IMG/VR virus record: IMGVR_UViG_3300029258_003681
Length of the DNA: 64,000 nt
Reading direction: 5' to 3' (one strand)
DNA from: a virus
The notes beneath the pieces were generated by a model. The model saw only the letters and a list, made by a program, of their open reading frames with translations. It did no database searches and had not been told where the DNA came from. Positions 4,478-61,414 of this stretch are shown here, one piece after another. The translations under genes and the position numbers were made by a program. Numbering within the stretch: the stretch's first letter is position 1; every line of letters begins with the position of its first letter.

Positions 4478-4493
4478 GCGAACTCCAGTTCGC
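4478..4493. repeat. 16-bp palindrome copy 1 (GCGAACTCCAGTTCGC)
   Basis: Intergenic, after Pro-rich gene stop. Confidence 0.95.
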
Positions 4494-4507
4494 AATGATA
4501 GGATAGA

Positions 4508-4945
4508 GTGATGACAGCAGTGAACCAGGTCCCTTCTGTATTGAATTCAAAGATTGTGTTGAGTCTAAAGTTCCCTTTCCAGTTGGGGTCGACAGGGTTT
4601 CCTGAGATGGCTGATCCGAAGAAGGTGACATTTTATCACATCACCTCATTGCTCCTAACTGCAAAAAATGAGAGAGTAATGAATCCAGACTTTGGGGTGA
4701 GTATTCACTCCTACGTCTTTGATAATTTGACGCCGATTACAATGGCACGGATTTCGTCTGTTGTGTCAAGGAGTATTGAAATGTGGGTGCCAGGGGCGCG
4801 AGTGGAAAAGGTGGTTCCGACAATTCATAAGAATGAGGATGGGACGCAGTCTACGATTATCCTCGATATTCGGTACCGAGTGGCGAATCAATCGGTGCAG
4901 ATGCAGGTCCCTGTTCCAGTAGGGACGATTCAGGCTGCTGCATAA
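4508..4945 (+). CDS. Baseplate wedge protein, gp25/gpW-like
   Basis: LLLTAKNERVMNPDFGVSIHSYVFD, IEMWVPGARVEKV match gp25 family pattern. Confidence 0.85.
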   Translation: MMTAVNQVPSVLNSKIVLSLKFPFQLGSTGFPEMADPKKVTFYHITSLLLTAKNERVMNPDFGVSIHSYVFDNLTPITMARISSVVSRSIEMWVPGARVEKVVPTIHKNEDGTQSTIILDIRYRVANQSVQMQVPVPVGTIQAAA

Positions 4946-4955
4946 GGAGCGGTAA

Positions 4956-7211
4956 ATGGCAACGGATCCTTATAATCCCCTGGTACAAGATCTCGTTCCT
5001 CTGAACGAGGTGAAGTATGCGGCCAGGGACTATCCGAGTATTTTTGACTCACTTCTCCGTCGTCTGAAGGTTGAGTACGAAGGCGTTTACAACGACTACG
5101 CGACTACGACGCAGGGCATCATGTTTGTCGAGCTGATGGCTTACGCGACGGCGCAGTTGCAGTGGTATTTGGATCGTACCGCGAGTGATTGTTTCCTGGA
5201 GACTGCGCGCACGCGCGCGGCCGTAGCGCGGTTGGTCAAGCAGATCGGCTACAAGATGGGGGCTGCGGCAGCGGCTTCGACTGTCCTTACGTTGACTTTC
5301 CCTGATGGTACGACGGGGCCGTTTGTGATGCCTGCGCGCTGGCAGTACCAGGGGCCTGATGGGTTGATCTTCGAATCGTATGCGGCTTATAACCAGCCAG
5401 TGGCGTTGGCTCCTGGGGCGACAATCAGTGTTCCTGTGCGACAGGGTGAGACAAGGCTTCTTAGCTACACGGCCGACGGAGAAAAGAATCAGCAGTACCG
5501 CTTGACCAATATTGGTACAGATCGATATCTCGGGGACGGTACTGTAGATGCATGGTTCGACGGTTCTCTTTGGACGGAATCTGAATTCCTGGAGTTTGAG
5601 AAAACTAACCAGTACGAGGTTGGCTACAACGACGATCCTCCGATTGTGCAGTGTGGGGATGGGATTGCTGGGAATATTCCTCCTGTCGGGGCCGATGTTA
5701 AAATCCGTTTTCTCATCATTGATGGTGAGAAAGGGAACGTGAAGGCGAACACTATCACCTCCTCCATTGATTCTTTGTTGATCAGTGGCGAGGAGGTGAC
5801 TTTCACAGTTACGAATGTGGAAGGTGCGACGGGCGGAGAAGAGCCAGAGGATCCCGAGCGGGCCAAGAGGCTGGCGCCGTTTGCGTTTGCCGCTCGTGGT
5901 GCGGCGATCACTGAGCAGGACTACGAGGCGCTCTCAAGCAGTTATACTGATCCGACCTATGGCTCGGTGGCGAAAGCATATGCGTTCAATCCTCGCACGG
6001 CCTATGATGATGTTGTTTTTAACGGATATACCGATCAGATTGAGCAGTATCTGGATAACTATCTGAATGGTGGTGGTTCATTCACTGGCATGATTGCGCT
6101 GGAGGCACAGCTGAATGCAGATGCTGTGGCGTTATCTCCGTTGATCACGGCCATGACTTCGGATCTTGCAAATCTCGAAACATTACGTGGGGATTTGGAG
6201 ACGCAAGTAGGGACATCTCTGACGCAGACTGCGACGGCGAAATCGTCATCATCAACTGCGGAGGCTGCGGCGGATCTTTCTGTTTCTAATTGTGCCGACG
6301 CCAGTCTGGAGCTGAACAATCTAATTACGTATGTCCAGAGTCTTAGTTTACCTGCTGGTGAAGAGGCTGAGATTATTCGTAGGATCAATGTGGCTCTTCA
6401 GTCTATCGGGTTGGCGAGTGATAATTCATTGGCTGCACAGACGGCTGGCGGGACTGCTGCGACAGCACTTGCAACGACGATTAATGACTTCCTGAATCCT
6501 GCGTATGAGTCGATTACGGTGGTGGCGACGGCGCCTGCGTTTTCTATTCCATCTATCATCGCGGATATGACGGCTGATTTGACGGCGATCACTGATCTTG
6601 TTGAGGGGGTAGGTGGGTTGCAGGCTCAGATTGCAGCCATGGTTGGAGAAGCCCAGACTTTGGAGGATCTCATCCTTCCAGAGCTGGTGTTGATGCATGA
6701 TCGAATTGGGGAGTTGTTCGATGCGGATTGTATGAGTAATTATGTGCAAGTTCCAATCTTGAGTCTTGATGTGGACGGTAACTATTCAGCTCCTTCTGTT
6801 GGGTTGATGACGGGGCTCCAGACTTACCTGACCCAGATCAAGGAAGTGACGCAGCATGTTGAAGTAATTGATGGTAGTTCGATTCTGGTGCCTGCCGCGA
6901 TAGCGATCCTGTTGGAGGTTAACAAGGATGCGTATATCGAGGCGGAGGTTGTTTCGGATGTGGTTGCTACAGTTGTAGGGATGCTGAAGGGTCGTGACTT
7001 CAACGATCCGATGTACTTATCTGAATTGTACGAAAACGTAATGGACACTTCGGACGGAATTATCCGCGCGAATGTTGAAATTACTGGTCCCTCATTGATT
7101 CCATCAGTTATTGATAATGAGGGCAATCTGGTGCCTGCTCCGAATCAGGTGATTGTGTATGGCTCTCTCTTGATCACTGACAAGGACGGGAACACTTTGT
7201 ATCCGAGGTAA
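4956..7211 (+). CDS. Baseplate J-like wedge protein with large helical insertion
   Basis: ELMAYATAQLQWYLD, FLETARTRAAV, GGEEPED...AITEQDYEAL motifs; follows gp25. Confidence 0.85.
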   Translation: MATDPYNPLVQDLVPLNEVKYAARDYPSIFDSLLRRLKVEYEGVYNDYATTTQGIMFVELMAYATAQLQWYLDRTASDCFLETARTRAAVARLVKQIGYKMGAAAAASTVLTLTFPDGTTGPFVMPARWQYQGPDGLIFESYAAYNQPVALAPGATISVPVRQGETRLLSYTADGEKNQQYRLTNIGTDRYLGDGTVDAWFDGSLWTESEFLEFEKTNQYEVGYNDDPPIVQCGDGIAGNIPPVGADVKIRFLIIDGEKGNVKANTITSSIDSLLISGEEVTFTVTNVEGATGGEEPEDPERAKRLAPFAFAARGAAITEQDYEALSSSYTDPTYGSVAKAYAFNPRTAYDDVVFNGYTDQIEQYLDNYLNGGGSFTGMIALEAQLNADAVALSPLITAMTSDLANLETLRGDLETQVGTSLTQTATAKSSSSTAEAAADLSVSNCADASLELNNLITYVQSLSLPAGEEAEIIRRINVALQSIGLASDNSLAAQTAGGTAATALATTINDFLNPAYESITVVATAPAFSIPSIIADMTADLTAITDLVEGVGGLQAQIAAMVGEAQTLEDLILPELVLMHDRIGELFDADCMSNYVQVPILSLDVDGNYSAPSVGLMTGLQTYLTQIKEVTQHVEVIDGSSILVPAAIAILLEVNKDAYIEAEVVSDVVATVVGMLKGRDFNDPMYLSELYENVMDTSDGIIRANVEITGPSLIPSVIDNEGNLVPAPNQVIVYGSLLITDKDGNTLYPR

Positions 7212-7214: not shown

Positions 7215-13106
<5,892 letters not shown>

Positions 13107-19358: not shown

Positions 19359-20141
19359 ATGGCTTTTGGAGTTATAGGTGCCGTAGTTGAAGCTATGATG
19401 TTTGGCCCCGAGGGGATGGACTATAAGGCTATTTCGATTGCGGGTGTGAATCCTGTTGATCAGTCTATAATGTTGCCCGAAAGAACCTTCCAATTTTGGC
19501 CCGAGTCGATCCAGGATACGATTGATATTGGTTGGAACTTCAAAGATATTCCAGGCATGTCGCATGCGCTCGCGCAATGGGCAAGTAACGGCGGTCGGAC
19601 GATTACATTTGAAGTTCATTTTCACAGGTTTATGAAGCCTGTAGCTTCGGTGGACCAGAACATTTTTGAGCGTGTTCTTGATCCGTTCAAGCTCAATACT
19701 CCTAGCTCGGAATATTTGAAAGATAATCGTCCTCACAACGTAGACATCGCGGCAGAGATCAAGTATCTGCGCGCGTTTTGCTATCCGAGCTACAAGGATG
19801 TTGAGGGGTATCGGACGTCGTTTCCTCCGCCTATTGGCATGCTGGCGGTCCCAGGAATGCGCTTGAGCGACAGTGATAATAGTGATGTAATTTATGTGAT
19901 CATGACTGGGTGTGATGTCACATATATGCTTGCATTTCCTGATGGTACTCCTCGGCGTGCTTCGGTGTCGCTGACTTTTCGTCAGGTGGTGCAGGATCCT
20001 GTGAACAAGGTGATTGTTCCTGCTGGTTTTGATCAAAACTCTCCGTTCGAGTTCGACGGGAGCGTTTGGGATACGATAGAGTCTGATCCGCCAGCGCGAG
20101 GGGGCAATCGGCCCAAGAATGGACTAGACGGATGGGGATGA
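19359..20141 (+). CDS. Tail tube initiator (CIS_tube / gp48-gp54-like)
   Basis: FQFWPESIQDTIDIGWNFKDIPGMSHALAQWASNGGRTITFEVHF and RRASVSLTFRQ fit this family. Confidence 0.7.
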   Translation: MAFGVIGAVVEAMMFGPEGMDYKAISIAGVNPVDQSIMLPERTFQFWPESIQDTIDIGWNFKDIPGMSHALAQWASNGGRTITFEVHFHRFMKPVASVDQNIFERVLDPFKLNTPSSEYLKDNRPHNVDIAAEIKYLRAFCYPSYKDVEGYRTSFPPPIGMLAVPGMRLSDSDNSDVIYVIMTGCDVTYMLAFPDGTPRRASVSLTFRQVVQDPVNKVIVPAGFDQNSPFEFDGSVWDTIESDPPARGGNRPKNGLDGWG

Positions 20142-20659: not shown

Positions 20660-20675
20660 GCGAACTCCAGTTCGC
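20660..20675. repeat. 16-bp palindrome copy 3 (GCGAACTCCAGTTCGC)
   Basis: Intergenic; extends to CC...GG. Confidence 0.95.
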
Positions 20676-22109: not shown

Positions 22110-22703
22110 ATGAGGAAACTGATTGAACGTCTGTCATTGATTGCCGAGGACTATTATGCGGCAAAATCGGGGAGGATTTCCGATTATATTGATGGGTGGC
22201 AGGTCAGGGGTGACAAAGCATACGAAGATTCTATGCCTATCATGATTGATGTTTCTCAGCTGTGGCCATATCGAGAGTATACATGGACGCGAGAGACTGC
22301 CCGTTCTGGGTATGCGCGAGTTGGTGGTAAAAAGTCTGATCTTCCTGGGGAATTGAAATGGGATGCTATGAAGTCCGACCTGAAGAAGAATGGTTGGGAT
22401 CGGACGGAGCCGTTGTACTTTGAGATCGGTCGTTCTCGGGGGGCAAAGGTTGGTGAAGGAAATCACAGGCTTGCTCTGGCTAAGGAGATTGGAATTCGGA
22501 AGGTTCCTGTGGTTTTTTTGTTTAAGGTTGGCAGTGTCACGAAGAGCAAGAAGCGCGACTCAAAAGTTGATATTTCGAAGGCTGCCGTTCGGGATGTTGT
22601 CAAGAGAGATGCCAAGAAGCCAGTTGCCAAGCAGGAGTATAAGCGTGGTGAGGATCCTGGAATGGATGACATCCTTGATCTTCTGCTGGGGAAGGGTGCG
22701 TAA
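22110..22703 (+). CDS. ParB/Srx N-terminal-domain protein with MRKLIERL leader
   Basis: VGEGNHRLALAKEIGIRKVPV matches the ParBc GxxR motif; no HTH seen. Confidence 0.65.
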   Translation: MRKLIERLSLIAEDYYAAKSGRISDYIDGWQVRGDKAYEDSMPIMIDVSQLWPYREYTWTRETARSGYARVGGKKSDLPGELKWDAMKSDLKKNGWDRTEPLYFEIGRSRGAKVGEGNHRLALAKEIGIRKVPVVFLFKVGSVTKSKKRDSKVDISKAAVRDVVKRDAKKPVAKQEYKRGEDPGMDDILDLLLGKGA

Positions 22704-29643: not shown

Positions 29644-29732
29644 GGGGGATTGGCTGAATTGGCAAAGCGGCGCCCTGGAACGGCGTAGCCTGCGTTTTTG
29701 ATGCAGTCCAGGTTCGAATCCTGGATCCTCCG
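29644..29732 (+). tRNA. tRNA-Ser (GGA)
   Basis: GGGGGAT/ATCCTCC acceptor, GCGCC-CTGGAAC-GGCGT, long variable arm, CCAGG-TTCGAAT-CCTGG. Confidence 0.9.
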
Positions 29733-29734
29733 CA

Positions 29735-29750
29735 GCGAACTGGAGTTCGC
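29735..29750. repeat. 16-bp palindrome copy 4 (GCGAACTGGAGTTCGC)
   Basis: Directly after tRNA-Ser(GGA). Confidence 0.95.
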
Positions 29751-29753: not shown

Positions 29754-29993
29754 ATGACGAGAACGATGAAAAAGAAGAATGCCAGATACAAACAGTGCTT
29801 GATCGGTCGGGAGACCGCTCGGTGGACCGCGTGGATCCCCGAGGCGCTGGCACGTGTCGGCAAGGTGATTGTGCCGAAGGGTGAAGGGCCTGCGTTGGTT
29901 TTGGAGGCTTACAGGGGCATTGCGCTTCGTCACGATGAATTGATGGATTTCTCGGAGGAGTACAAACATCACCGAGGAAGGACGGATATTTAA
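29754..29993 (+). CDS. Small hypothetical protein inside tRNA array
   Basis: 79-aa ORF, ARYKQCLIGRET...TAWIPE. Confidence 0.55.
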   Translation: MTRTMKKKNARYKQCLIGRETARWTAWIPEALARVGKVIVPKGEGPALVLEAYRGIALRHDELMDFSEEYKHHRGRTDI

Positions 29994-31739: not shown

Positions 31740-32405
31740 TTACTCGGTGAATTCGATATAGTGTTTTTTTAGGCATTTGCGGACAATATTTGTGGCTTCG
31801 TCGCTTCCTAGCATCCTTTTCAATCCACGCATTGACCACCATGTTGCAACATCGCGGAGCTTCTTGACGTTCATGTTTTTCAGAGGCACCATGATGTTCT
31901 TTGGGAGTCTTGCGTCCTCGATCGATATATTTTGGAACGCATCCATTCCTTTTTTTCGAAGATTGATGACTCGGTATCCTGGGTCCGACTCCATCAGACG
32001 TCGATGCTCTCGGAGTTGTTCTTCTCGTTCTTTCTTGTACTTCTCACGAAAAAACAAAGACCCCAGTTTTTTTACTGTGTTGACACTGATTTTGTGTTTT
32101 CTGGCAAGTCCTGCCTGTGTTTCTCCGTCGCGTAGTCCTTTCTCAATGACCTTTTCCGATGGCATTGGGTTGCAATTGACTGGGTGACAAAATTTCCTCT
32201 GGCTTTTCCCGAGAGCTGTGAATTTTTTCCCGCACTTCAGGCATGATCGCTCTTCGGGTGTATGTGCTCTTGTTTTATTATGTATCTTTTTGCTGATCCT
32301 GGAGAGGTAGTCGGCGGCATCGTACATCCCCTCGCGGTTGGCGATAGGGATCAGATCTTTCAGCTGGTCGTGTAGAGAATCCTGTCTCTGTGGTTTGCGG
32401 CTCAT
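31740..32405 (-). CDS. Zn-finger + HTH + RNA polymerase alpha-CTD-like protein
   Basis: CLKCGKKF..KFCHPVNC; ETQAGLARKHKISVNTVKKL; ISIEDARLPKNIMVPLKNMNVKKLRDV..LKRMLG. Confidence 0.55.
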   Translation of the reverse strand: MSRKPQRQDSLHDQLKDLIPIANREGMYDAADYLSRISKKIHNKTRAHTPEERSCLKCGKKFTALGKSQRKFCHPVNCNPMPSEKVIEKGLRDGETQAGLARKHKISVNTVKKLGSLFFREKYKKEREEQLREHRRLMESDPGYRVINLRKKGMDAFQNISIEDARLPKNIMVPLKNMNVKKLRDVATWWSMRGLKRMLGSDEATNIVRKCLKKHYIEFTE

Positions 32406-33844
32406 TACATTTTCCCGTTTTCGATGAAATCCTTGACCGTCGGCGAGATGTAGAGCTTCTCGGTGCCGCGCGTGATGGCGACGTAGATCAGGTTCATTTC
32501 ATCGGGGTTGATGATTCTGAGTTCGGGATGGTCCTTGTGCGTGTCGATCATAGATGTGAAGTCTGGCGCCAGCTGTACCACTGGGAATTCCATCCCCTTG
32601 GCTTTGTGGCCCGTGGTGTAGGTCACCTTTGAGAATTTGGCGCCAACATCTCGGTGTTTCACTTCGTTGACGATTGTCGGGATCCGTGCTCCGAATTCCT
32701 CGACCAGCTGGCAGGCCGCCTCCAGCTCCTTGCTCTTGACCTTGCCAGCGTACTCCAGAAGATCCTCGAAGGTCTCGAAGGATTTGATGAGCGGATCCTT
32801 GGCCATCTCGGGTTCGTCATTGTAGACGTGGTAGGCATCCAGGACGGATTGGAATCGGTAGTTTCGGTAGTCTCCGCCCACGAACCCGATTGATTTCTTG
32901 CTGAATTGGCACTCTGCGGATGCAGCTCGGAAGATGTGCATGTTCCCGCGTGCGAGCAGCGTGTGCTTGTCTGGTCGGCCGCTTGTCAGGACTTCTGTGG
33001 TCAGCGAGTCCAGGCCCCGTAGTTCGTTTTTCTCGCCTTTGAACCGCTTCAGCAGCGTGCTGGCGAGGGCTGCGACATCGGGGCCGAAGCGGAAGCTTTG
33101 CGAGAGGTACAAATTCTCGGCTCCCTTGACCAGCTTCAGGGCATCGATCGCGCCTCTCCATCCGTAGATGGCCTGATGGGGATCGCCCACTACGATTTTC
33201 TTGCAGTGTTGGTTTTTGACGATATCCCAGACGCAGGGCGTGGTGTCTTGTGCCTCGTCGAGCAGGATGTAGTCGAATCGCAGCTCTGGACCCGAGAGCT
33301 GGTAGAGCTTCAGGTAGCCGTCGTGGGTCATCGGGAGGGTGCGTGGTCTCAGGCTTTTCATGCTGTCCCAGATCATGTCGGCCATTTCGACGAAGGGTGG
33401 TATCTCCTCAGCATCTTGGTAGTAGTCGCGGATCTCGTCGCCGATATGATGGCTGTCGATTTCGGGATCAGGAGACGCCAGAAAATGCTTGACGACGGAG
33501 GATGCGAAGTTTGCCAGGACGATGTTGGTCTCCAGTAGTTTGGCGATTCCCCAGAGGGGCACACTGCCGCGCAGGAGACCCGCATCTCGGTAGGCGCCTC
33601 CGCAGGCTTGGTACGCGAGCGAGTGTGTAGTACGGCTCGTCACGTTCACAGGCATTTTGCGCTCGGCTTCGAGTTGTATTGCCTTATTGAATGCGGCGTA
33701 CAGGATCCTGTCGGCGGGCCGATCCTCCGCGTACTTTTGGAGAGTGAAGGTCTTGCCCGTCCCTGCAAAGGCCGTCACGAGCAAGGATCCCCCTCGACCT
33801 GGCGTTGAATCAATAATCGCTTTTTGTTCATCTGTCAGTTTCAT
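32405..33844 (-). CDS. uvrD: UvrD/Rep-family SF1 helicase
   Basis: AFAGTGKT Walker A, LLDEAQD, VGDPHQAIYGWRGA, LSQSFRFG, TGHKAKGMEF, YVAITRG. Confidence 0.9.
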   Translation of the reverse strand: MKLTDEQKAIIDSTPGRGGSLLVTAFAGTGKTFTLQKYAEDRPADRILYAAFNKAIQLEAERKMPVNVTSRTTHSLAYQACGGAYRDAGLLRGSVPLWGIAKLLETNIVLANFASSVVKHFLASPDPEIDSHHIGDEIRDYYQDAEEIPPFVEMADMIWDSMKSLRPRTLPMTHDGYLKLYQLSGPELRFDYILLDEAQDTTPCVWDIVKNQHCKKIVVGDPHQAIYGWRGAIDALKLVKGAENLYLSQSFRFGPDVAALASTLLKRFKGEKNELRGLDSLTTEVLTSGRPDKHTLLARGNMHIFRAASAECQFSKKSIGFVGGDYRNYRFQSVLDAYHVYNDEPEMAKDPLIKSFETFEDLLEYAGKVKSKELEAACQLVEEFGARIPTIVNEVKHRDVGAKFSKVTYTTGHKAKGMEFPVVQLAPDFTSMIDTHKDHPELRIINPDEMNLIYVAITRGTEKLYISPTVKDFIENGKM

Positions 33845-34011
33845 TCGTCTTCCTCGGTGTTGTCTTCGCAGTCAGGGCAGATGTCTCCGTAGGGGGCTGG
33901 TCGATCATGCCATCCTGATTTGTCAATTTTTTTGATTACTTCGTCTGCATTGTTGCCATGGATTGTGGTAGTCTTTCCGCAGACGCAACATTTGAGTTTG
34001 ATGTGTTTCAT
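33841..34011 (-). CDS. 56-aa Zn-ribbon protein; not in ORF track
   Basis: MKHIKLKCCVCGK...ICPDCEDNTEEDE; GGAG RBS; stop overlaps uvrD start. Confidence 0.65.
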   Translation of the reverse strand: MKHIKLKCCVCGKTTTIHGNNADEVIKKIDKSGWHDRPAPYGDICPDCEDNTEEDE

Positions 34012-34061
34012 CCAGTCGCTCCATTCTCGGGATCTCCCCGAGCATCATTTGGCCTGCTGGA

Positions 34062-34090
34062 ACATTAAAGCCTGTGGGCGCGTTAGTCAA
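34062..34090 (-). promoter_or_regulatory. Leftward sigma70-type promoter
   Basis: TTGACT-17 nt-TAATGT on the minus strand. Confidence 0.7.
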
Positions 34091-34127
34091 CTTGATATTG
34101 CTGGAAAAACTTTCTGGCGAGAAAGGG

Positions 34128-34155
34128 TTGACAAACCCCTCAAAGAGCTTAACAT
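34128..34155 (+). promoter_or_regulatory. Rightward sigma70-type promoter
   Basis: TTGACA-16 nt-TAACAT. Confidence 0.7.
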
Positions 34156-34209
34156 GGCAACAGGAACCTGGAGATGCCTGGCAAGATGTCAGGAGGAGGA
34201 ATTGCATCG

Positions 34210-34425
34210 ATGTCGACAGAAAAGATCAAAGAGAGGCGCGTTCTGGTGCATGGCAAGTTCAAGGGGACGGTCGTTGGAAGTCGTAACCGCCTGGGCCATG
34301 GATTCTGCTACATCGTTGAGTTTGACCAGCCTGGCGGCCCACTGGGATCGAACTTCGGTCCTCAGTATGTCAGGGTGAAGGATGCCAAGCCGCTGGACGA
34401 AAGAGAGGTCGCAAATGGCAACTAA
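34210..34425 (+). CDS. Small SH3/KOW-like hypothetical
   Basis: AGGAGGAG RBS; RVLVHGKFKGTVVG beta pattern. Confidence 0.55.
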   Translation: MSTEKIKERRVLVHGKFKGTVVGSRNRLGHGFCYIVEFDQPGGPLGSNFGPQYVRVKDAKPLDEREVANGN

Positions 34426-34663
34426 TGAGTGGTTCGAAATGACAGACGGTTGTATCGAGAGAAAGAACGGCGAGACTATCGTTTACGATGAGGAGGGGAA
34501 CGAGATGTTCCGCCTCGACTGGGAGGCCGGTATCAATCAGGTGGTCAAGCTCAAGGCTGTCTTTGACAAGGCGTACCGTGTTGGTAGGGTGGTCGGACAG
34601 GACGAGAAGATCAACGAGATGCGCCGGGTGCTGGAGATCCCGGCAGGAGCATTCAGGGAGTAG
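34415..34663 (+). CDS. Hypothetical protein
   Basis: GAGGT RBS, MATNEWFEMTDG. Confidence 0.55.
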   Translation: MATNEWFEMTDGCIERKNGETIVYDEEGNEMFRLDWEAGINQVVKLKAVFDKAYRVGRVVGQDEKINEMRRVLEIPAGAFRE

Positions 34664-34665
34664 GC

Positions 34666-35097
34666 ATGGTTCGAGAAATCGATACAAAAACATGGATCCG
34701 TATCCAGGAGAAATTGGCAGCATATGTGCGTACGCGCACGCGCGAGTGGATAACAGATCCAGACAATGGAAGTACTCCGACGGTACGTGAATTGGCGCGG
34801 CGATATCGGATTCCCCAGGCGGACATCCAGGATATGATCGAGGGGCACGAAGACCTCGATCTGATTATCGGGGTGCAGATTCCTGGCATGGGGTGTTTTG
34901 AAGAGGAGCATATCGGCGACTATCAGGCTGAGTGGATTGGGGAGCATCTTTTTGAGGCTGACATGGATGTTGAGATCGAGGGGAAGCGGGCGAAGCTTCT
35001 GCGACCGTACAGTGATATCAAGGGAGGCTGGATCGTCGATCCGCCGATCGAGGGATTTAGGTACTGGAACGAGGATGCGATGAAGGTGGTGAAGTGA
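34666..35097 (+). CDS. Hypothetical, wHTH-like N-terminus
   Basis: TPTVRELARRYRIPQADIQDMI. Confidence 0.55.
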   Translation: MVREIDTKTWIRIQEKLAAYVRTRTREWITDPDNGSTPTVRELARRYRIPQADIQDMIEGHEDLDLIIGVQIPGMGCFEEEHIGDYQAEWIGEHLFEADMDVEIEGKRAKLLRPYSDIKGGWIVDPPIEGFRYWNEDAMKVVK

Positions 35098-35306
35098 TGG
35101 CTGTTAGAAACATTGAGGTACATCGGGCGCATTGTTGTCGATTTCATGGTTGCAAGTATGGGGCTGAGGATTGCCCTGTGGTGAGCGGGGGAACAGGGCA
35201 GTTCTATCCTTGTGAGGTGTGCCGTATGTATGGGATCCTTACCATTGGGCCTTTGAAAAAACGCCCTCATCGAGGGCGTGTGTTAAGGGATGAAAGGGAT
35301 GACTAA
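35097..35306 (+). CDS. Cys/His-rich small protein, paralog 1
   Basis: HRAHCCRFHGCKYGAEDCPV...CEVC. Confidence 0.6.
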   Translation: MAVRNIEVHRAHCCRFHGCKYGAEDCPVVSGGTGQFYPCEVCRMYGILTIGPLKKRPHRGRVLRDERDD

Positions 35307-35580
35307 GAAGGAGTTTTTATTGCGTGTTAGCAAGATGCGATGCCCGCAACTCCATGAGGGGGTTGATTCCGATTGTATTTTTCTTAATAGGTGCTGGTTT
35401 GTGGAAGATGAAACCGAGGAAGAATTAAAGAATCGATTTTGGCTGCCTGGTGTGCGATTATCAAGTAGACAATACCGACGAAATGACGCGAGTGTACTTG
35501 AAGCTTACTACAGGCGAGAGACTAAGACACGTGAGCGTTATGTACGGTGGCTCGCCGAATGTCAGGAAAGCGAGAAGTGA
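35290..35580 (+). CDS. Hypothetical protein
   Basis: Fills gap between paralogs with overlapping start and stop. Confidence 0.5.
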   Translation: MKGMTKKEFLLRVSKMRCPQLHEGVDSDCIFLNRCWFVEDETEEELKNRFWLPGVRLSSRQYRRNDASVLEAYYRRETKTRERYVRWLAECQESEK

Positions 35581-35840
35581 TGGCTGTTAGAAACATTGAG
35601 GTACATCGGGCGCATTGTTGTCGGCTTCATGGTTGCAAGTACGGGGCTGAGGATTGCCCTGTTGCGATGGGAGAGTTTGTACAATTTTCCCTTTGTGAGG
35701 TGTGCTGTCAGGATGGAATTCTTACCATGTCAGAGCTGAGGGCTGTGACCCTTGGATCTTTGAAAACGTGCCCTCATTGTGGGCATGTGTTGAGGGATCA
35801 GGAAAAAGCCGAGCATCAAGAAAGCGAGGGTGAAGTTTGA
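35580..35840 (+). CDS. Cys/His-rich small protein, paralog 2
   Basis: HRAHCCRLHGCKYGAEDCPV...CEVC...CPHCGH. Confidence 0.6.
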   Translation: MAVRNIEVHRAHCCRLHGCKYGAEDCPVAMGEFVQFSLCEVCCQDGILTMSELRAVTLGSLKTCPHCGHVLRDQEKAEHQESEGEV

Positions 35841-36010
35841 AATGGATATGCAAAAAGATATGTTCTTGGTTTGGCCATAGTTTCGATCCAATTGATCTAC
35901 TCATGTTTGAACTAAAGTGCGCGGCTCTGAACTCGCGGCAGTTAGATCCAAGGATAACTTGTAGGAGGTGCGGTCTTGTAATCAGAAAGCGAGGGTGTTG
36001 TGATGAGTGA
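35837..36010 (+). CDS. Small Zn-binding protein (TTG start); not in ORF track
   Basis: KKICSWFGHSF...TCRRCG, a DUF1660-like pattern. Confidence 0.45.
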   Translation: MKWICKKICSWFGHSFDPIDLLMFELKCAALNSRQLDPRITCRRCGLVIRKRGCCDE

Positions 36011-36416
36011 GAGATGTATGATTTGCGGTGCTGCTCTGACAACTGGAGGCTGTCCTAATTGTTTGGATGCCACACATGTGAGATTACGGGGGCCAGCCAA
36101 AGAGCCCAGTGTGCCGTGCCAGTCTTGTGCGCTCCTTACCACTGCCCTCGCCGAGCGGGACAAGGAGATCGAGCGGTTGCGAATGGCACTACAAACACTG
36201 TTGCCTGGAGTTGAGCGTGTAAACGAAACAAGCGTTGAAGCACATCTCGCTACTGGTAGGTTTTATCTCAATGTTGCCGGGAACGTAACAATAGTTGAAG
36301 GAGACGTGTGTCGAGATCCGAGAAGAGGGATGGTGTGGACGTCGGACGATATTCAAGAAATTGAAGAGAAGTTCAATGCGCCGATACGTGCTGCGCTGAA
36401 GGAAAGCGAGGGGTGA
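36003..36416 (+). CDS. Hypothetical with N-terminal Zn knuckles and coiled coil
   Basis: CMIC..CPNC, CQSC, ALAERDKEIERL. Confidence 0.55.
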   Translation: MSERCMICGAALTTGGCPNCLDATHVRLRGPAKEPSVPCQSCALLTTALAERDKEIERLRMALQTLLPGVERVNETSVEAHLATGRFYLNVAGNVTIVEGDVCRDPRRGMVWTSDDIQEIEEKFNAPIRAALKESEG

Positions 36417-36640
36417 TGGCATTACCGAGTGATCGACAACAGGCGTACAAGCTGCGTATCGAGAATCGTCGATTTGAAGCTGAGAACAAAAAACTCAAGG
36501 CTGAGATTGAGCGCTTGCACACTGGTGCTTTGAAGATGGCGAGGATAATCGCGGCGGACCGCAACAATTGGTCCGAGGTCGGGGTTTCCTTCGACAAAAC
36601 GCCAGAGGATATTTTGGCCGAATTTGACATGGAGAGGTGA
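36416..36640 (+). CDS. Hypothetical coiled-coil protein
   Basis: ENRRFEAENKKLKAEIERL. Confidence 0.55.
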   Translation: MALPSDRQQAYKLRIENRRFEAENKKLKAEIERLHTGALKMARIIAADRNNWSEVGVSFDKTPEDILAEFDMER

Positions 36641-36641
36641 C

Positions 36642-37625
36642 ATGGATTTCAAGAAAATGGCTCAGGACAATATGATCCTGAAAATACGGGTTGGATCTCA
36701 TCTTTTCGGGACGAGTACTCCCGACAGCGATGAGGACTATTTCGGTGTGTTTATGCCGTGCGACGAGACGATCTTTGGGTTTCAGAGATGTGACGAAGTG
36801 GATCTCGGCGTGGTGGACAAGGACGACACAGGGCGCAACACGGCGGAGGCGGTCGACTTCAAGATCCACGATTACCGAAAGTTTGTGAAGACGGTGATGG
36901 AGAATAATCCAAATTTCATGCACGCGATCTTTGTGAACGAGGAGAACATCTTGTTCAAGGACGAACTGGGGTTCGCGGATCGGTTGCTGGCGCTGAAGCA
37001 TCGAATCGTCCACAAGGGGGCGTATCGGCGATTCATAAAGTACGCTGATTCTCAGCTGCACAAGATGCGGATCAAACCCGCGAACTATGCTGCGCTGGAG
37101 CGCGGGTTGGAGCTGTTGGAAGAAGAGTTCGATCCAGATAACGTGCTGGCTGATGTCACGGCGAGGTACACTGGAACGGACCTGATATTTGTTGACCAGG
37201 GCAAGGGAAAGCACGTCAAGTGTGGGGATCTGTTTATAGAGCGTGGAACCTTTGTGAAAAAGGCCAAGAAGATGATTCGGCATCGGCTGGCTAACGCGAC
37301 GAGCAGGCACGTGCTTTTCACGAAATACGGCTACGATACAAAGTTCGCGTCGAATCTGATCCATCTTTTGATGACGGGCAGGGAGATCATGGAGACTGGC
37401 AGGATCAAGTTTCCATTGACCTACGCCAACCACGTTCTCGATGTGAAGCAGGGCAAGTACTCGGTGGATGAGATTGAGAAGTGGGCCGAGCAGCTGAAGG
37501 AGGAGGCTCGGGTGGCTTACGAGGAGACCGAGGTACGGGCGAAGCCAGCTGCCGATCTTGAGAAGTTCGCCATGCGCGAGCTGTATAAATGGTCGCAACT
37601 GACAACGAAACTCAAGGAGGAGTAA
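36642..37625 (+). CDS. DNA polymerase beta-superfamily nucleotidyltransferase (RlaP/PF10127-like)
   Basis: GSHLFGTSTPDSDEDYFGVF (GS..G....SDxD), ENNPNFMH, YDTKFASNLIHLL. Confidence 0.85.
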   Translation: MDFKKMAQDNMILKIRVGSHLFGTSTPDSDEDYFGVFMPCDETIFGFQRCDEVDLGVVDKDDTGRNTAEAVDFKIHDYRKFVKTVMENNPNFMHAIFVNEENILFKDELGFADRLLALKHRIVHKGAYRRFIKYADSQLHKMRIKPANYAALERGLELLEEEFDPDNVLADVTARYTGTDLIFVDQGKGKHVKCGDLFIERGTFVKKAKKMIRHRLANATSRHVLFTKYGYDTKFASNLIHLLMTGREIMETGRIKFPLTYANHVLDVKQGKYSVDEIEKWAEQLKEEARVAYEETEVRAKPAADLEKFAMRELYKWSQLTTKLKEE

Positions 37626-38915: not shown

Positions 38916-38931
38916 ACGAACTCCAGTTCGC
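38916..38931. repeat. 16-bp palindrome copy 5 (ACGAACTCCAGTTCGC, 1 mismatch)
   Basis: Intergenic after stop at 38905. Confidence 0.85.
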
Positions 38932-41833: not shown

Positions 41834-42184
41834 ATGAGGCATGAAATTCGAGTCGAGGAATACACGCGAGATGCCGACGGGAAGGTTCTTGTGCAAGTGA
41901 CCATGTCCGAGTTGGCGGGGGCGGGTATGTTTCGCATTGTGAGCCTGGGTCAAACGGTCGAAGAGGCGATGCTTGAATTGGCTCACCGTTTGCGTTTGGT
42001 TGCTGACGATGCGGATGATATCGCGGACAAAATATTCGATCAATACAGGGTGGAGAATGACGAAAAGGCGAACTCCAGTTCGCAGGAAGGAAAAGAAGAA
42101 AATGGACCTAACCTTAGATTGCTCAAATGTGACGGTGGAGCCGTGGGGGATGAAGCATGTCCGAGTGACGATGGAGGAGATTGA
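41834..42184 (+). CDS. Hypothetical protein
   Basis: ORF whose tail contains the 16-bp palindrome and overlaps the next gene. Confidence 0.45.
   Translation: MRHEIRVEEYTRDADGKVLVQVTMSELAGAGMFRIVSLGQTVEEAMLELAHRLRLVADDADDIADKIFDQYRVENDEKANSSSQEGKEENGPNLRLLKCDGGAVGDEACPSDDGGD
42068..42083. repeat. 16-bp palindrome copy 6 (GCGAACTCCAGTTCGC)
   Basis: In tail of ORF 41834, upstream of ORF 42102. Confidence 0.95.
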
Positions 42185-45267: not shown

Positions 45268-45268
45268 A

Positions 45269-47058: not shown

Positions 47059-47225
47059 CTGACTACCCTTATATCTGGTATTGGAAGAGCAAATTGCCAG
47101 AGCGCAAGGGCCAGAGGTGTCGCGTGCTTGTTCGTGGCAAGATGAACAGTATTGCTGTTGAGTTTGAGAGTGATGGATATCGGGTTGTGACAAGTCGGTA
47201 TGCGGTGAGGAAGGCGAAGAAATAA
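47055..47225 (+). CDS. 56-aa hypothetical; not in ORF track
   Basis: MTDYPYIWYWKSKLPERKGQRCRVLVRGKMNSIAVEFESDG; overlaps at both ends. Confidence 0.6.
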   Translation: MTDYPYIWYWKSKLPERKGQRCRVLVRGKMNSIAVEFESDGYRVVTSRYAVRKAKK

Positions 47226-47818
47226 TGGGAAAGTTCAATGTAATTTTGTCGGATTGTCCCTGGCAGTACGATGACAAAGCTGGGAAGCGTGGGGCCGATA
47301 AACATTACGCTACATTGAGTATGAAGGAATTGATGTTTCTTCGTGTGGGCGATTTGGCGGCCGAGAATTGTGCTCATTTCATGTGGGTGACGGGGCCATT
47401 TATGTTGGAGGGTATCCGTCTTCTCAGGGCCTGGGGTTTTCGGTATCGCAATATTGCATTCACTTGGATCAAGACGAATCGAAAATCGGGGACATTGTTT
47501 ACTGGCATGGGCCACTATACGCGATCGAATCCTGAATTTGTTTTGCTAGGGATAAAGGGCAAGATGGAGCGGAAATCCGCGAGTGTTCATTCCGTGATTA
47601 TGGCGCCGATGATTTCGCATTCGGCGAAGCCTCCCGAGATCCGCGACAGGATTGTTGAGTTGTTTGGCGATGTGCCTCGTTTGGAGATGTTTGCCAGGGC
47701 TCCATGGGAGGGATGGGAGCAGACGGGGTTGGAACTAGACAATCTGGACGTGCGAGAATATATTGAGAAGGTGGCTCCTGCGCGAAAGGGCCTATCGGTA
47801 TTTGGAAAGCGAACTTGA
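47225..47818 (+). CDS. MT-A70 family N6-adenine methyltransferase
   Basis: ILSDCPWQY (DPPW-like), AWGFRY, GHYTRSNPE, HSAKP, RLEMFAR. Confidence 0.9.
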   Translation: MGKFNVILSDCPWQYDDKAGKRGADKHYATLSMKELMFLRVGDLAAENCAHFMWVTGPFMLEGIRLLRAWGFRYRNIAFTWIKTNRKSGTLFTGMGHYTRSNPEFVLLGIKGKMERKSASVHSVIMAPMISHSAKPPEIRDRIVELFGDVPRLEMFARAPWEGWEQTGLELDNLDVREYIEKVAPARKGLSVFGKRT

Positions 47819-47824
47819 GTTCGC
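47809..47824. repeat. 16-bp palindrome copy 7 (GCGAACTTGAGTTCGC)
   Basis: Spans the MT-A70 stop codon. Confidence 0.95.
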
Positions 47825-49774: not shown

Positions 49775-50194
49775 ATGCGTGAGCTAATAGAACAGAGGAG
49801 GGCGCAGATGAAGACTCTCCCCGCGATGGATTCGGACTTCGAGAGTTCGAATGTTCATTCAATAGGCTATGATGAGCCAACAATGACTCTATTTGTTCGG
49901 TTCTGGCAGTTGAGCAAAAGCAAACGTTCTCAGATCCCTGGTCCAGTCTACAAATATTTCAATGTGGAGAAGAAGGTCTATTTGCAGATGTACTATGCTG
50001 CCAGCAAAGGGAAATTTGTGTGGGAGCGTCTGCGGAATAGATATCGGTATGCCATGATGGGCCGTCGCGGATGGCGTGGTCCGATGACGAAAGTAAACCG
50101 TCCGAATGCCAAGAATCCTGCTCGTCAGGAGAGGAGAATGGCTCCTCCCAAGAAGCGCAGATCGGGTTCCAAGAGACCAGCTGCCGCCAGGTAG
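49775..50194 (+). CDS. KTSC domain protein with basic tail
   Basis: ESSNVHSIGYD...LFVRF...YKYFNV...AASKGKFVWERL. Confidence 0.85.
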   Translation: MRELIEQRRAQMKTLPAMDSDFESSNVHSIGYDEPTMTLFVRFWQLSKSKRSQIPGPVYKYFNVEKKVYLQMYYAASKGKFVWERLRNRYRYAMMGRRGWRGPMTKVNRPNAKNPARQERRMAPPKKRRSGSKRPAAAR

Positions 50195-50276: not shown

Positions 50277-51344
50277 GTGGCAATGAGATGGTTTTTGATT
50301 GCATCTATTTTGGTATTGGGATGTGGCGGTGAATATCCTTTATTGGAGGAGGAGGACGCAGGGGGTGTACAATGGGGAGGACAGAGTATGGGGGATGGAG
50401 GGGGAGATAGTGACACAGAAAGTGGAGAAGAGAATACCGAGGATGATGCGGGCGCTGACGTAAAAGATGGAGGATTAGATGATGACACTGATGCTGACGT
50501 TGATACCGATGCTGATAGCGGCGCTGATACTGATGTTGATATTGACGCTGATATTGATGCAGATGGAGACGCAGACACGGATGCAGACGGTGATAGTGAT
50601 GGGGATAGCGATAGTGATACTGACTCTGATGCTGATAATGATACAGATGTGGATGTAGACACCGACACTGATACCGACACCGACTCAGACGCCGACTCGG
50701 ATACTGATACCGACACCGACACCGATATTGATAGCGACACTGACAGCGACACTGACACTGATACGGATGCGGACGGGGATGTGCCATGCGAGTATTTCTG
50801 CGGACCGAGTCAGGTTTGGTGTTTGGGAACTGGAAACATTGAACATCCTGAGCAGACTTGTCCTGGCACGGACTTTTGTTGCGACATTTCTGGGGGAGGT
50901 GACGCCGACTCTGATACCGATACGGACACGGATACGGACGCTGATAGTGATACTGATGCGGATGCCGACCCGAGGGCGTGTGACGGTGGACGGAAGTTGG
51001 AATCTGGAGGCACAGAGTATTGTTGGCAGCAGTATCCAGCTTCAGCGAGGCCACTAGCTAACGCCATGACGTACTGCGACAATATTGGGCTGGGTGGTCA
51101 CACGGACTGGGATCTTCCAAACTCTGTAGAGGCGCAGATGTTGTTTGACAATTGCGTCAACACAGCCCCTGGGATCTACGACTGCGATTCTTGCGCTGAC
51201 AGCTACAATTGTTCGGAGATGTTTCCAGGTGACACGGAAACCTACTGGCTGGCGGGTCCTGTTGTGAAATTCTTCACTGGCGTGATTACTTACTCGGGAG
51301 GCAGCTCCAGCGAGTACAAGGTGAGATGTGTCCGCGAGATTTAA
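50277..51344 (+). CDS. Lipoprotein with Asp-Thr/Asp-Ala repeats and DUF1566 (Lcl C-terminal)-like domain
   Basis: Lipobox LVLGC; DTDTDTDADSD runs; WQQ...AMTYCDNIGLGGHTDWDLPN. Confidence 0.8.
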   Translation: MAMRWFLIASILVLGCGGEYPLLEEEDAGGVQWGGQSMGDGGGDSDTESGEENTEDDAGADVKDGGLDDDTDADVDTDADSGADTDVDIDADIDADGDADTDADGDSDGDSDSDTDSDADNDTDVDVDTDTDTDTDSDADSDTDTDTDTDIDSDTDSDTDTDTDADGDVPCEYFCGPSQVWCLGTGNIEHPEQTCPGTDFCCDISGGGDADSDTDTDTDTDADSDTDADADPRACDGGRKLESGGTEYCWQQYPASARPLANAMTYCDNIGLGGHTDWDLPNSVEAQMLFDNCVNTAPGIYDCDSCADSYNCSEMFPGDTETYWLAGPVVKFFTGVITYSGGSSSEYKVRCVREI

Positions 51345-51359
51345 CGAGCTTGAGTTCGC
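51344..51359. repeat. 16-bp palindrome copy 8 (ACGAGCTTGAGTTCGC, 2 mismatches)
   Basis: Overlaps lipoprotein stop. Confidence 0.7.
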
Positions 51360-51396
51360 GCTCTATGTGCGGTAGGGTTTTTTATCGGAGGGAGCT

Positions 51397-51612
51397 ATGG
51401 ATCTTTATTTAGTGAGCAAGGCGTCGCAGGACGAGACACGAACGGGTGTGGTAGAGGTTGCCGAGATGACGGTGTTTGGCGTTTTCACGAGTTCGTCGCG
51501 CGCGGCTGATATTGCAGCGAAGCATGATGCGACAGTGACGGAGTTCGATGCGGACAAAGAGGTTTCGCAAACGGTGCAGCGTTGGTTGAATCCTGGCTAT
51601 GTCTCGGGTTGA
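51397..51612 (+). CDS. Hypothetical protein
   Basis: GGAGGGAG RBS; VFGVFTS. Confidence 0.55.
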   Translation: MDLYLVSKASQDETRTGVVEVAEMTVFGVFTSSSRAADIAAKHDATVTEFDADKEVSQTVQRWLNPGYVSG

Positions 51613-51944: not shown

Positions 51945-52134
51945 GGATGCTGGAAGCCTTCGAGCTGGCAGAGGCCGTCGGCGATAAGGCATTGACGATT
52001 GATGAGTTATTGTTTGTGGCAGATGCGCGAAAGCGGAAGGGATGCCGCACTTTGAAATCTGCGTTATCCGCCGATGAACGTCGGCGAGTGATGAATCTTG
52101 GGTTGAAATGCAAAGCGTGGAAGGAAGAAAACCG

Positions 52135-52470
52135 ATGAAGAAAAAAGCCGAGAAAAAGAGTGCAAAGAAGAGTGTTGCGAAGAAAAATGTTGTGGAAAAA
52201 TCTGTGTTTCGTCCATTGCATGACAACGTAGTCATCGAGAAGGACACGGCCAATACTGAGGACAAGGTAACAAAGGGCGGTCTTTTCATTCCTGGCTCGG
52301 CTACTCAGCCGCCGAATACTGCGAAAGTGATCGCTGTTGGTCCTGCGGTAGAGGGCCTCAAGGCTAACGATGTCATTGTTGTTGGTACTTTCTCGGGGAC
52401 GAAGGTAGTGGTCAATGACGAGGAATATGTGGTTATCAAATTTGATGATGTCCTGGGCTTGTACGAATAG
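52135..52470 (+). CDS. groES: Co-chaperonin GroES with Lys-rich N-terminal extension
   Basis: FRPLHDNVVI, TKGGLFIP, AKVIAVGP, FSGTKVVVNDEEYVVIKFDDVLG. Confidence 0.9.
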   Translation: MKKKAEKKSAKKSVAKKNVVEKSVFRPLHDNVVIEKDTANTEDKVTKGGLFIPGSATQPPNTAKVIAVGPAVEGLKANDVIVVGTFSGTKVVVNDEEYVVIKFDDVLGLYE

Positions 52471-59311: not shown

Positions 59312-60158
59312 TCACGCATTTACAATTGGGCATTCGCACAAGGTTTGTGAGGACTACGCGAGATCTGGTGTGACTCCTCCTTATTCGGGATGTTCGACTG
59401 CGTATGCTTTCGTGTCCGACGGATGTTCCGGTAGCAAGGACACGGATGTTGGCGCAAGAATTCTGGTTTCTGGAGTCGAGCAGAGTCTATTTGCAGGTCG
59501 ACGGGTCAAGGCGACGGATGACATTTGTGCGATTATCTATTCCTGTGTTCCCGTGCAGCGGTTGTTGGGTCTTGATGAGGCGTGTCTGGATGCGACGCTT
59601 CTTGGGGTCTATGTTGACACCCGTATCAATGTCTTTGGGATGGGTGACGGTGTGATCGCGTTCAAGATGCATTCTGGTGATCTGGTGGCGTTCGACATTC
59701 TTTCGCCATCTGGGTTCCCACTTTATCCGTCCTACTTCTTGAACCGCTCTCGTCTGATCGGCGTCCAGGAAGAGATGCGGCAGGATCCAGAGCGCGGGTG
59801 GCGCGTGGACTATATCCGCGAGAAGGGGGACACGATCGAACGCGAAGAGCGGTGCTTTTGGAGTAGGGGTCTGGATCTGTTTGTGCAGAGCTACTCGCGG
59901 GGCGACGAGGATCCAAGCTGCGTGGACGATGACGATTTTATCGAGACAGTGGCGGTGTTTTCTGACGGGGTAGGCAGTTTTGTCGATGAGAACCGCCAGA
60001 GCGTGTCCCAGCTGGATGTGGTCCGCGAGCTGATGGCCTTCAAAGGCTACAAGGGGGAGTTTGTGAAGCGGCGACTCCAGGGCTTCCTGCGCGCGTGTGC
60101 GAAGCGCGGGTGGAAGCATGATGATGATCTCTCGATGGGCGCGGTTTACTTGGGTTGA
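59301..60158 (+). CDS. PP2C-like (PPM) phosphatase, YegK/TerY-P type
   Basis: GHSH...CED, VSDGCSG, DATLL, GDG, FSDG, DDD. Confidence 0.85.
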   Translation: MQADHAFTIGHSHKVCEDYARSGVTPPYSGCSTAYAFVSDGCSGSKDTDVGARILVSGVEQSLFAGRRVKATDDICAIIYSCVPVQRLLGLDEACLDATLLGVYVDTRINVFGMGDGVIAFKMHSGDLVAFDILSPSGFPLYPSYFLNRSRLIGVQEEMRQDPERGWRVDYIREKGDTIEREERCFWSRGLDLFVQSYSRGDEDPSCVDDDDFIETVAVFSDGVGSFVDENRQSVSQLDVVRELMAFKGYKGEFVKRRLQGFLRACAKRGWKHDDDLSMGAVYLG

Positions 60159-60182
60159 CAAACGCGCAGGAGTGCTTAGAGT
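60155..60182 (+). promoter_or_regulatory. Sigma70-type promoter overlapping PP2C stop
   Basis: TTGACA-16 nt-TAGAGT upstream of pncB. Confidence 0.6.
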
Positions 60183-60223
60183 GTGTGCTGATGGCCGTCG
60201 AGATGACGGCAGGAGGAGACTAA

Positions 60224-61414
60224 ATGGCCACTGTTGACGATCCAATCATCACGAGTCTTTTAGACAACGATCTCTACAAATTCTCAATGCAGAATGCTGT
60301 GTTTCGGTTGTTCCCAGATGCTTGCGTGGAGTACAGCTTCATTGATCGGGGTCAGACGAAATGGAGTCCAATGGGAGAGAGCCTGAAGGATCAGATTCAG
60401 GCATATTGCGAACTCCAGTTCGCCGAGGCCGAGATTGATTTTCTCCGACGGAAGTGCCCTTATCTCTCGAAGCATTACCTGGAGTGGCTCCAGGGATATC
60501 GGCCCGATCCCGACGAGGTTTCCCTCAAATGGGACGGTAGCCTTCGGAATCTGACTGTCCGTGGGCCATGGTATCGGACGATCCTCTGGGAGGTGCCTTT
60601 GATGGCTATGATCTCGGAGCAGTATTATCGTTCGGATCCTCAGATGGATGGCAAGATCCTGGACCGCAGCCGAGACATCGAGAAAGCTCGTCGCATGGGG
60701 CGGATTGCTCCGTACTCAGACTTTGGGACGCGGCGCAGGTTTTCGAGGGAGAATCACGAGCGTATTGTGCAGATCCACAAAAAGCACGGGGGCAGAAGAT
60801 TTCAGGGGACCAGCAACGTCTGGATGGCGATGAAATATGACCTGGATCCCAGGGGGACGATGGCCCACGAATGGATCATGTTTCATGCGGCGGCCTACGG
60901 CTATCGGAGCGCGAATGAGATGGCTCTGCGAAATTGGTACGATGTCTACAAAGGGGAGCTGGGGATTGCCCTGACCGACACGTACACGTCGCTGCGGTTT
61001 TTCCGTGATATGGATGTTGACCTGGCGCAGATCTACGACGGCTTGAGGCACGATAGCGGTGATCCGATCGCGTTTGCATACGAGGCGGCTGATTTTTATA
61101 TCGAGAACGGGATCCAGCCGAGTTCTAAGAAAATAGTATTTTCGGATGGGCTGACGGTTGATCGAGCTGAGGAGATTTACGAGGCTTGCAAGGGGGTGAC
61201 GAAACCCTCTTTTGGAATTGGAACTCATTTCACGAATGACCTTGGGGTGCCCGCGTTAAATATGGTCATCAAAATGACGAAGGCTTCCTTGGAGGGGGAG
61301 GACTATTTCATCCCGACGGTGAAATTGTCGGATGTTTCGGGCAAGCACACGGGATCCAAGGAGTCGGTGTATTCGTGCAAAATACAGCTGGGATTGGCTG
61401 AGACAGGAGTTTGA
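60224..61414 (+). CDS. pncB: Nicotinate phosphoribosyltransferase
   Basis: SLLDNDLYK, DFGTRRRFS, GTSNV, GTMAHEW, TDTY, RHDSGDP, FSDGL, FGIGT, KLSD. Confidence 0.92.
   Translation: MATVDDPIITSLLDNDLYKFSMQNAVFRLFPDACVEYSFIDRGQTKWSPMGESLKDQIQAYCELQFAEAEIDFLRRKCPYLSKHYLEWLQGYRPDPDEVSLKWDGSLRNLTVRGPWYRTILWEVPLMAMISEQYYRSDPQMDGKILDRSRDIEKARRMGRIAPYSDFGTRRRFSRENHERIVQIHKKHGGRRFQGTSNVWMAMKYDLDPRGTMAHEWIMFHAAAYGYRSANEMALRNWYDVYKGELGIALTDTYTSLRFFRDMDVDLAQIYDGLRHDSGDPIAFAYEAADFYIENGIQPSSKKIVFSDGLTVDRAEEIYEACKGVTKPSFGIGTHFTNDLGVPALNMVIKMTKASLEGEDYFIPTVKLSDVSGKHTGSKESVYSCKIQLGLAETGV
60408..60423. repeat. 16-bp palindrome copy 9 (GCGAACTCCAGTTCGC)
   Basis: Inside pncB coding sequence (C-E-L-Q-F-A). Confidence 0.95.

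Follow-up and report, generated by a model that had tools for sequence, protein, structure and literature searches.

Dispersed dyad repeats are already known in a few phage groups. Dispersed too are the stoperators, repressor sites that occur by the dozen in the short intergenic gaps of operons and have been proposed to block elongating RNA polymerase. They belong to the Cluster A mycobacteriophages, with gp71 as the repressor in phage L5 (as cited in PMC4351075), while the Cluster O mycobacteriophages carry 17-bp dyad repeats, 5′-TGTTCGGNNNCCGAACA, in more than 30 copies (PMC4351075). A different kind of dyad is the operator of the DNA damage repressor LexA, with the consensus CGAAC(N)4GTTCG in Bacillus subtilis (PMC4551915) and tCGAAC-N4-GNNCGa in Streptomyces (PMC4551915, PMC9380542), and phage GIL01 uses the LexA of its host as a repressor via one such site, dinBox1 (PMC4551915). 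Here, we describe an array of 16-bp palindromes in an uncultured large T4-like phage, represented by a 64-kb piece (the window, meaning the whole stretch analysed) of the ~195-kb genome of IMG/VR record IMGVR_UViG_3300029258_003681. An initial sequence-only reading of this DNA took the palindrome to be unlike known sites, but its core is the CGAAC-N4-GTTCG LexA box (PMC4551915).

The window derives from the genome of a T4-type myovirus, includes a block of 13 tRNA genes, and has nearly all of its genes on the + strand. It contains seven exact copies of GCGAACTNNAGTTCGC (at 4478, 13091, 20660, 29735, 42068, 47809, and 60408), where 100 dinucleotide-preserving shuffles of the window gave no match, and three more copies if up to two mismatches are allowed, at 38916 (one mismatch), 51344 (two), and 36961 (two). 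The array in the 64 kb is thus RCGAACT-NN-AGTTCGY with seven perfect and three degenerate members, the central dinucleotides of which are CC (five), GG (two), TG (two), and TA (one). This rescan recovers all seven perfect and both degenerate copies listed by the sequence-only reading, which had missed the one at 36961, and the gene coordinates bear out its placement of them at stop codons or a tRNA end, with one inside pncB, and in early as well as late regions genome-wide. Eight of the ten copies occupy the few nucleotides that separate a stop codon, or the end of a tRNA, from the next Shine-Dalgarno (SD) sequence, the other two being in pncB and in an RlaP-like gene. Since gene junctions of the window that lack the motif have gaps of just 0–12 nt, the motif looks like an insert in otherwise tightly packed operons, and the order stop, motif, SD, start is the sole arrangement that the available space permits.

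The array is shared by related phages. Genomes G001 to G004 (G001 is a fragment of G003) have 16–25 copies each with at most one mismatch and none of a reversed control pattern, and 16–42 copies are found in each of more than 10 related contigs, in which the control is near zero. The window is colinear with G004 at 65–85% amino acid identity, at least six of its sites have orthologues in G004 despite diverged flanks, and the site that precedes the baseplate wedge gene persists even where the wedge protein is only 48% identical. Phages related by their capsid protein down to 64% identity retain the arms CG(A/c)AC...GT(T/g)CG across a GC range of 33–67%, the invariant positions being exactly CGAAC-N4-GTTCG, with inner four nucleotides that vary by lineage. 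The spacing of the copies is also more even than chance, with a coefficient of variation (CV) of 0.44 in the window, where 0.9 would be expected (P ~0.008), and of 0.44–0.65 in the window, G002, G003, and G004, versus ~0.95 for random positions or gene junctions (P 0.002–0.016), so that the regular spacing first suspected from the sequence holds in the window and three relatives. The palindrome is real and under selection. Other searches gave nothing: a megablast of 20 kb of window DNA had no match among cultured phages, no viral or metagenome contig contained an exact 32-mer taken from the end of the window, and genome contigs gave no match to the baseplate protein.

For a closer analysis, 97 sites from five genomes were oriented by coding strand. 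Intergenic positions account for 79 of them, and 46 lie directly ahead of an SD and a start codon, at 7–22 nt and most often 12–15 nt before the start. The dyad CGAAC-N4-GTTCG is present in all seven perfect window sites and in 87 of the 97, and the core of the palindrome is, letter for letter in sequence, the LexA SOS box of the Gram-positive, Actinobacteria, and Chloroflexi type.

A candidate host comes from a capsid search with G003 and G004 as queries, which led to a metagenome-assembled genome (MAG, G022) labelled uncultured Dehalococcoidales. One of its contigs, 150 kb long, bears a capsid gene 100% identical to that of G003. Of the occurrences of the pattern in this 2.6-Mb MAG, 25 are on the phage contig, one is on a 7.7-kb contig, probably the remaining part of the phage, and one is elsewhere. 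With this single occurrence outside phage contigs the palindrome is not a host element of the REP (repetitive extragenic palindrome) type. The sole perfect box outside the phage contigs, CGAACTAATGTTCG, lies between a TTGACA-N17-TATGTT promoter and the SD of lexA, 14 nt before the ATG of a canonical gene (L197:1501-2124) encoding LexA_DNA_bind (PF01726) and Peptidase_S24 (PF00717) domains. In the same order, 23 of 25 lexA genes have AGAAC-N4-GTTCG 11–20 nt before the start and directly 5′ of the SD, and this box-SD-ATG geometry is common to the lexA genes of the order and the phage sites. The full arrangement in these Dehalococcoidia-type MAGs (L197:1420-1510, loci L204-L229) is TTGACA, ~17 nt, a −10 element, and AGAAC-N4-GTTCG abutting the SD. 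In G022 a radical SAM gene like that of spore photoproduct lyase directly follows lexA. When 20 kb of the window were compared with 36 genomes of this order in search of matches resembling spacers, only tRNA-level matches were returned.

LexA-like genes are found in some of the phages themselves. G002, G003, and G004 each encode a protein with PF01726 as its only domain (E 7e-22 to 7e-10) and without the S24 protease domain. These three proteins are ~35–40% identical to each other and are encoded in three different genomic contexts, none with an operator directly upstream. Their recognition helix begins I-S/G-S-T-N, versus I-S-S-T-S in the LexA of the MAG. In the window the slot of the LexA-like gene of G004 corresponds to 33854-36634, a variable island between the helicase and RlaP genes with nine small open reading frames (ORFs), for which Pfam gave no hits.

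That the palindrome acts as DNA and not as RNA is evident from how the 97 sites vary. As all sites are transcribed within operons and adjoin the SD, they might instead form an RNA hairpin, with a 6-bp stem and a tetraloop 5′ of the ribosome site, which would serve as a processing site, a 5′ stabiliser, or a translational operator, and folding predictions give −8 to −9 kcal/mol with the SD left free, a modest hairpin of 6 bp. An RNA stem tolerates G.U pairs and not A.C pairs, yet the outermost pairs are G..C in 44 sites, A..C in 18, G..T in 17, and A..T in eight, so that the A..C mismatch is as common as G..U. The number of A..T pairs expected if the two positions were independent is 7.5, and the outer positions of the half-sites do vary independently (chi2 p 0.78). 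The centre is strand-symmetric with respect to the coding strand (TG 38 versus CA 33), the would-be loops thus being equally frequent in both orientations. A strand bias of CC over GG in the window (8:1) was gone with more sequences, the count for this spelling being CC 13 versus GG 9 after further fragments were added. What is conserved is the stem sequence and not merely its pairing, and position 7 with its partner 10 (T..A, C..G, or A..T) differs between genomes and never among the sites of one genome, a pattern that a shift in the half-site preference of a protein would produce and site-by-site compensation would not. Codons within genes are likewise tuned in sequence to preserve the site: at an orthologous in-gene site the peptide R-T-Q-V-R is constant and the codons follow the lineage (ACT CAA GTT, ACC CAG GTT, or ACA CGT GTG). 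Also counting against a hairpin, nine of the ten window sites have no downstream T-run of the kind expected at an intrinsic terminator, and an Rfam search of the sequence returned tRNAs only and no family matching the palindrome. Hence the RNA explanation is very improbable, and because the half-sites are independent, the centre is strand-symmetric, and codons are tuned, the palindrome is by its pattern of variation a double-stranded DNA site for a symmetric dimer, with two independent half-sites RCGAACT and a 2-bp centre. The dimeric-protein site envisaged by the sequence-only reading is supported on these grounds, and the RNA-processing role that it also allowed is disfavoured by them. Among the ten copies, just that at 51344 has a T-run after it (gggttttttat, 51360-51396), and it may thus also mark a terminator before a core 71-aa gene at 51397.

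The question is then which protein binds the array. We give about an even chance to a reading in which its members are LexA-type operators that function as mid-operon roadblocks, as a sink for LexA, or as both; the phage would thereby probably wire its long operons to the DNA damage repressor of the host. Both roles are what we infer from an established site, selection on its DNA, its SOS-box identity, and the LexA-like genes in relatives. According to this proposal, about one consensus-strength SOS box per 4–8 kb, placed between a stop codon and the next ribosome site in long co-directional operons, would be occupied by host LexA, together with the phage-made protease-less LexA DNA-binding domain where relatives encode one. 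As the window phage has no LexA-like gene in its 64 kb, the reader here would be host LexA. Bound dimers would be stoperator-like roadblocks to read-through into the downstream blocks of 4–8 kb until LexA falls, being released upon its cleavage after damage, and the even spacing would arise because roadblocks would act on each 4–8-kb segment. A protease-less phage copy might make the block RecA-independent or displace the host LexA, and replicating phage genomes would add thousands of strong sites, draining LexA. Perfect dyads of this kind would be high-affinity targets for a host LexA of the CGAAC type, and the interaction would therefore hardly be neutral, whatever the origin of the sites. 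Rather doubtful, though possible, is the more far-reaching view that a clade of large, non-integrating T4-like phages, with 25–40 consensus host SOS boxes at their operon junctions, uses host LexA, joined in some members by an uncleavable phage version of the LexA DNA-binding domain, as a genome-wide switch. The phage would be throttled with LexA intact and would fire on host damage, and LexA would be drawn away from the regulon of the host by the replicating phage DNA.

Several observations weigh against LexA as the reader. Only ~7 of the 97 sites are within 60 nt of a sigma70-like promoter and the majority are mid-operon, which supports the sequence-only reading in its remark that the sites do not overlap the promoters. 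No tyrosine integrase was found in four near-complete relatives (serine recombinases were not searched), so there is no obvious lysogeny to control. The host link is by metagenomic binning only and concerns the contig with the G003-identical capsid, not the window phage, and a relative, G023, is in a bin labelled 'uncultured archaeon' without LexA anywhere in the bin. The G023 DNA (contigs C8, C16, C26, and C80; loci L196, L200-L202, and L283-L290) is ~168 kb of T4-like sequence with 33% GC and 28 identical CGAACTCGAGTTCG sites, and its presence in an archaeon-labelled MAG is probably a binning error. A LexA-like gene is absent from the 64 kb of the window, as judged by a search of its six-frame ORFs with a hidden Markov model (HMM) of the three phage LexA-like domains, and a word look-up with the phage LexA-like protein P0001 found no look-alike in the windows of this genome. 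The same HMM had no match among six-frame ORFs of G023, G059, G062, and the outgroup contig L300, and no such gene was found in G023 (168 kb on four contigs), G059 (87% complete), G060-62 (58–91% complete by CheckV), or G069 (40% complete).

The spellings are a further difficulty. The inner four nucleotides are T-YR-A in G002-G004, G006, and G069, T-CC/GG-A in the window, G005, and several fragments, T-CG-A in G023 and others, C-YR-G in G060-G062, and A-CG-T in G059. Each genome keeps them uniform, and they are under selection even inside genes, in contrast to bacterial lexA operators, which vary freely at these positions. Moreover, G059 uses CGCAC as often as CGAAC, the two half-sites being mixed freely. 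The outgroup phage L300 (IMGVR_UViG_3300035698_009059, a 29-kb contig), ~43% identical and with a syntenic tail module, has the same layout but carries CGCAAT-CG-ATTGCG every 4–5 kb just before the SD (L300:1487-15850). To our knowledge this matches no LexA box. It resembles operators of the LacI/PurR family (CGCAAA-CG-TTTGCG), and no LacI-type helix-turn-helix (HTH) was found in the 29-kb contig. Given this CGCAAT array and the relatives without a LexA-like gene, the array system predates the LexA-like gene, and the arms are changeable.

These features would be explained if the phages encoded a symmetric DNA-binding protein dedicated to the sites and co-evolving with them, the likeness to the SOS box being incidental and the LexA-like genes of the three relatives having some other task, for instance the silencing of SOS genes of the host. 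The fixed spelling of each genome, the changed arms of the outgroup, and the CGAAC/CGCAC mix of G059 all look like regulator-operator co-evolution, and near-complete relatives manage without any LexA-like gene. A protein is also at hand, since the sole recognisable DNA-binding fold among 40 gene families shared by five near-complete genomes is a 60–85-aa ribbon-helix-helix (RHH) protein, a core RHH_1 family present in G003, G004, G023, G059, G062, and the outgroup, the gene for which lies 2–3 kb before the window start in G004 coordinates. Residue 8, in its strand, is K/R in phages with the T spelling and Q/P in those with the C or A spelling, although this split tracks the phylogeny, and the predicted DNA-facing residues R, N, and E are the same in CGAACT and CGCAAT phages. 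Its family distribution and strand residue thus hint, weakly, at the RHH protein as a candidate phage reader. A dedicated reader, however, requires three coincidences, namely a 10/10 match to the SOS box with its spacing, LexA DNA-binding genes within the clade, and a shared box-SD-ATG geometry, and arms that are constant over 33–67% GC better suit a slowly evolving outside partner. We consider it unlikely, if still a serious contender. Of the binders proposed by the sequence-only reading, those encoded at 20138, 22110 (22110-22703), and 53339 are without a Pfam DNA-binding hit and that at 31740 is not conserved in relatives.

The even spacing and the placement at gene junctions could also mark DNA transactions, such as boundaries for recombination and module exchange, sites of replication or nicking, or loading points for a genome-coating factor, and deletions between repeats are reported in Cluster O phages (PMC4351075). 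Since neither a nuclease nor a recombinase nor a ParB clamp that was both conserved and tied to the sites came to light, such a function has a low probability, and a role in segregation or packaging, put forward from the sequence at the outset, gains no support from the genomes, in which neither an integrase nor a ParB clamp was found. A ParB clamp as the reader was considered and rejected, the only ParB_N domains of the clade being in fusions of ParB_N with an N6_N4 DNA methylase. These fusions are conserved in the clade (L123:11533-13902:- in G004 and L119:11239-12522:+ in G003), an intein that carries a LAGLIDADG domain splits the one in G004, and in G002, G003, and G004 a palindrome lies 60–130 nt upstream of the gene.

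Most of the individual sites of the window conform to the common layout. The perfect site at 4478..4493, GCGAACTCCAGTTCGC, is 7 nt past a stop (4471) and 14 nt before GTG 4508 with an SD, and its orthologues are retained in G004, G003, G006, and the 48%-identity relatives. That at 13091..13106 (centre TA) is 12 nt past stop 13079 and 14 nt before GTG 13121, the SD-preceded start of a 1032-aa structural gene. Two perfect sites with a CC centre are each 18 nt before an ATG, at 20660..20675 (3 nt past stop 20657, ATG 20694, orthologue G004 20051) and 42068..42083 (ATG 42102, orthologue G004 40216), and that with a GG centre, 29735..29750, follows tRNA-Ser (29644-29733) by 2 nt, ahead of a small ORF at 29754. 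The site at 47809..47824 (centre TG, orthologue G004 45031) overlaps the TGA of the gene 47225-47818 and is 9 nt before ATG 47834. Of the degenerate copies, ACGAACTCCAGTTCGC (38916..38931, one mismatch, orthologue G004 38113) is 10 nt past stop 38905, ACGAGCTTGAGTTCGC (51344..51359, two mismatches) overlaps the stop of the gene 50277-51344 and is followed by the T-run and ATG 51397, and ACGAACTGGGGTTCGC (36961..36976, two mismatches), the weakest member, is within the RlaP-like gene 36624-37625. The perfect site at 60408..60423 is inside pncB (60224-61414), where it is translated as C-E-L-Q-F-A; it is retained in G002 and G004 as E-L-K-F, the CC centre of the window costing a change of K to Q.

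Other genes of the window include a Cpn10/GroES homologue (52108-52470), a KTSC-domain protein (49775-50194), the RlaP-type nucleotidyltransferase (36624-37625), and a UvrD-type helicase (32405-33844, − strand) on the sole leftward block. The relatives also share a highly conserved 105-aa core protein (L125:10882-11199:- in G004, and orthologues) that contains the basic stretch ELHASRERARRTN and ends in a D-V/L-G-F tail; Pfam gave no hit for it, and its C-terminal tail is reminiscent of the clamp-binding tails of T4 gp33 and gp55.

If LexA does read the array, the SOS control known from small temperate phages would also reach large T4-like phages whose hosts are slow-growing anaerobes, a virus would have copied the operator layout of its host's lexA at dozens of junctions, and the sites would provide a clue, obtained from sequence alone, to the host group as bacteria whose LexA is of the CGAAC type. 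Should the reader instead be a private phage protein, the lineage spellings would be a natural series in which a regulator and ~30 operators have changed together.

In comparison with known systems, the array differs from the loading sites of parS/ParB or KorB type, as no ParB-family HTH clamp was found alongside it. It resembles the Cluster O repeats, which likewise pair inverted 7-bp arms across a short spacer and exceed 30 copies per genome, many of them in short intergenic gaps and about a third to a fifth in genes. Spacing and arm order differ, however, and Cluster O phages are 70-kb siphoviruses whose sites are reportedly not tied to translation starts (PMC4351075), whereas the present array is in T4-like myoviruses and half of its sites abut an SD. 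With stoperators it shares many sites in short intergenic gaps along operons (79 of 97), but those are 13-mers without symmetry that all point the same way relative to transcription, and the present sites are palindromic and orientation-free (38:33 and 13:9). Stoperators also belong to the immunity repressor of temperate phages, in contrast to a clade in which no tyrosine integrase was found in four near-complete relatives (serine recombinases were not searched). Typical LexA operators overlap or follow a promoter and block initiation, unlike an array with ~7 of 97 sites near promoters. GIL01 has few boxes at one promoter, whereas here 25–40 boxes lie mid-operon in a T4-like genome of 150–195 kb in which no integrase was found, and their inner four nucleotides are fixed per genome, unlike those of GIL01-type operators, LexA binding in the present case being a prediction. 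Nevertheless, the array shares with GIL01-type operators the core CGAAC-N4-GTTCG dyad, and with the lexA genes of the candidate host order a box placed directly 5′ of the SD.

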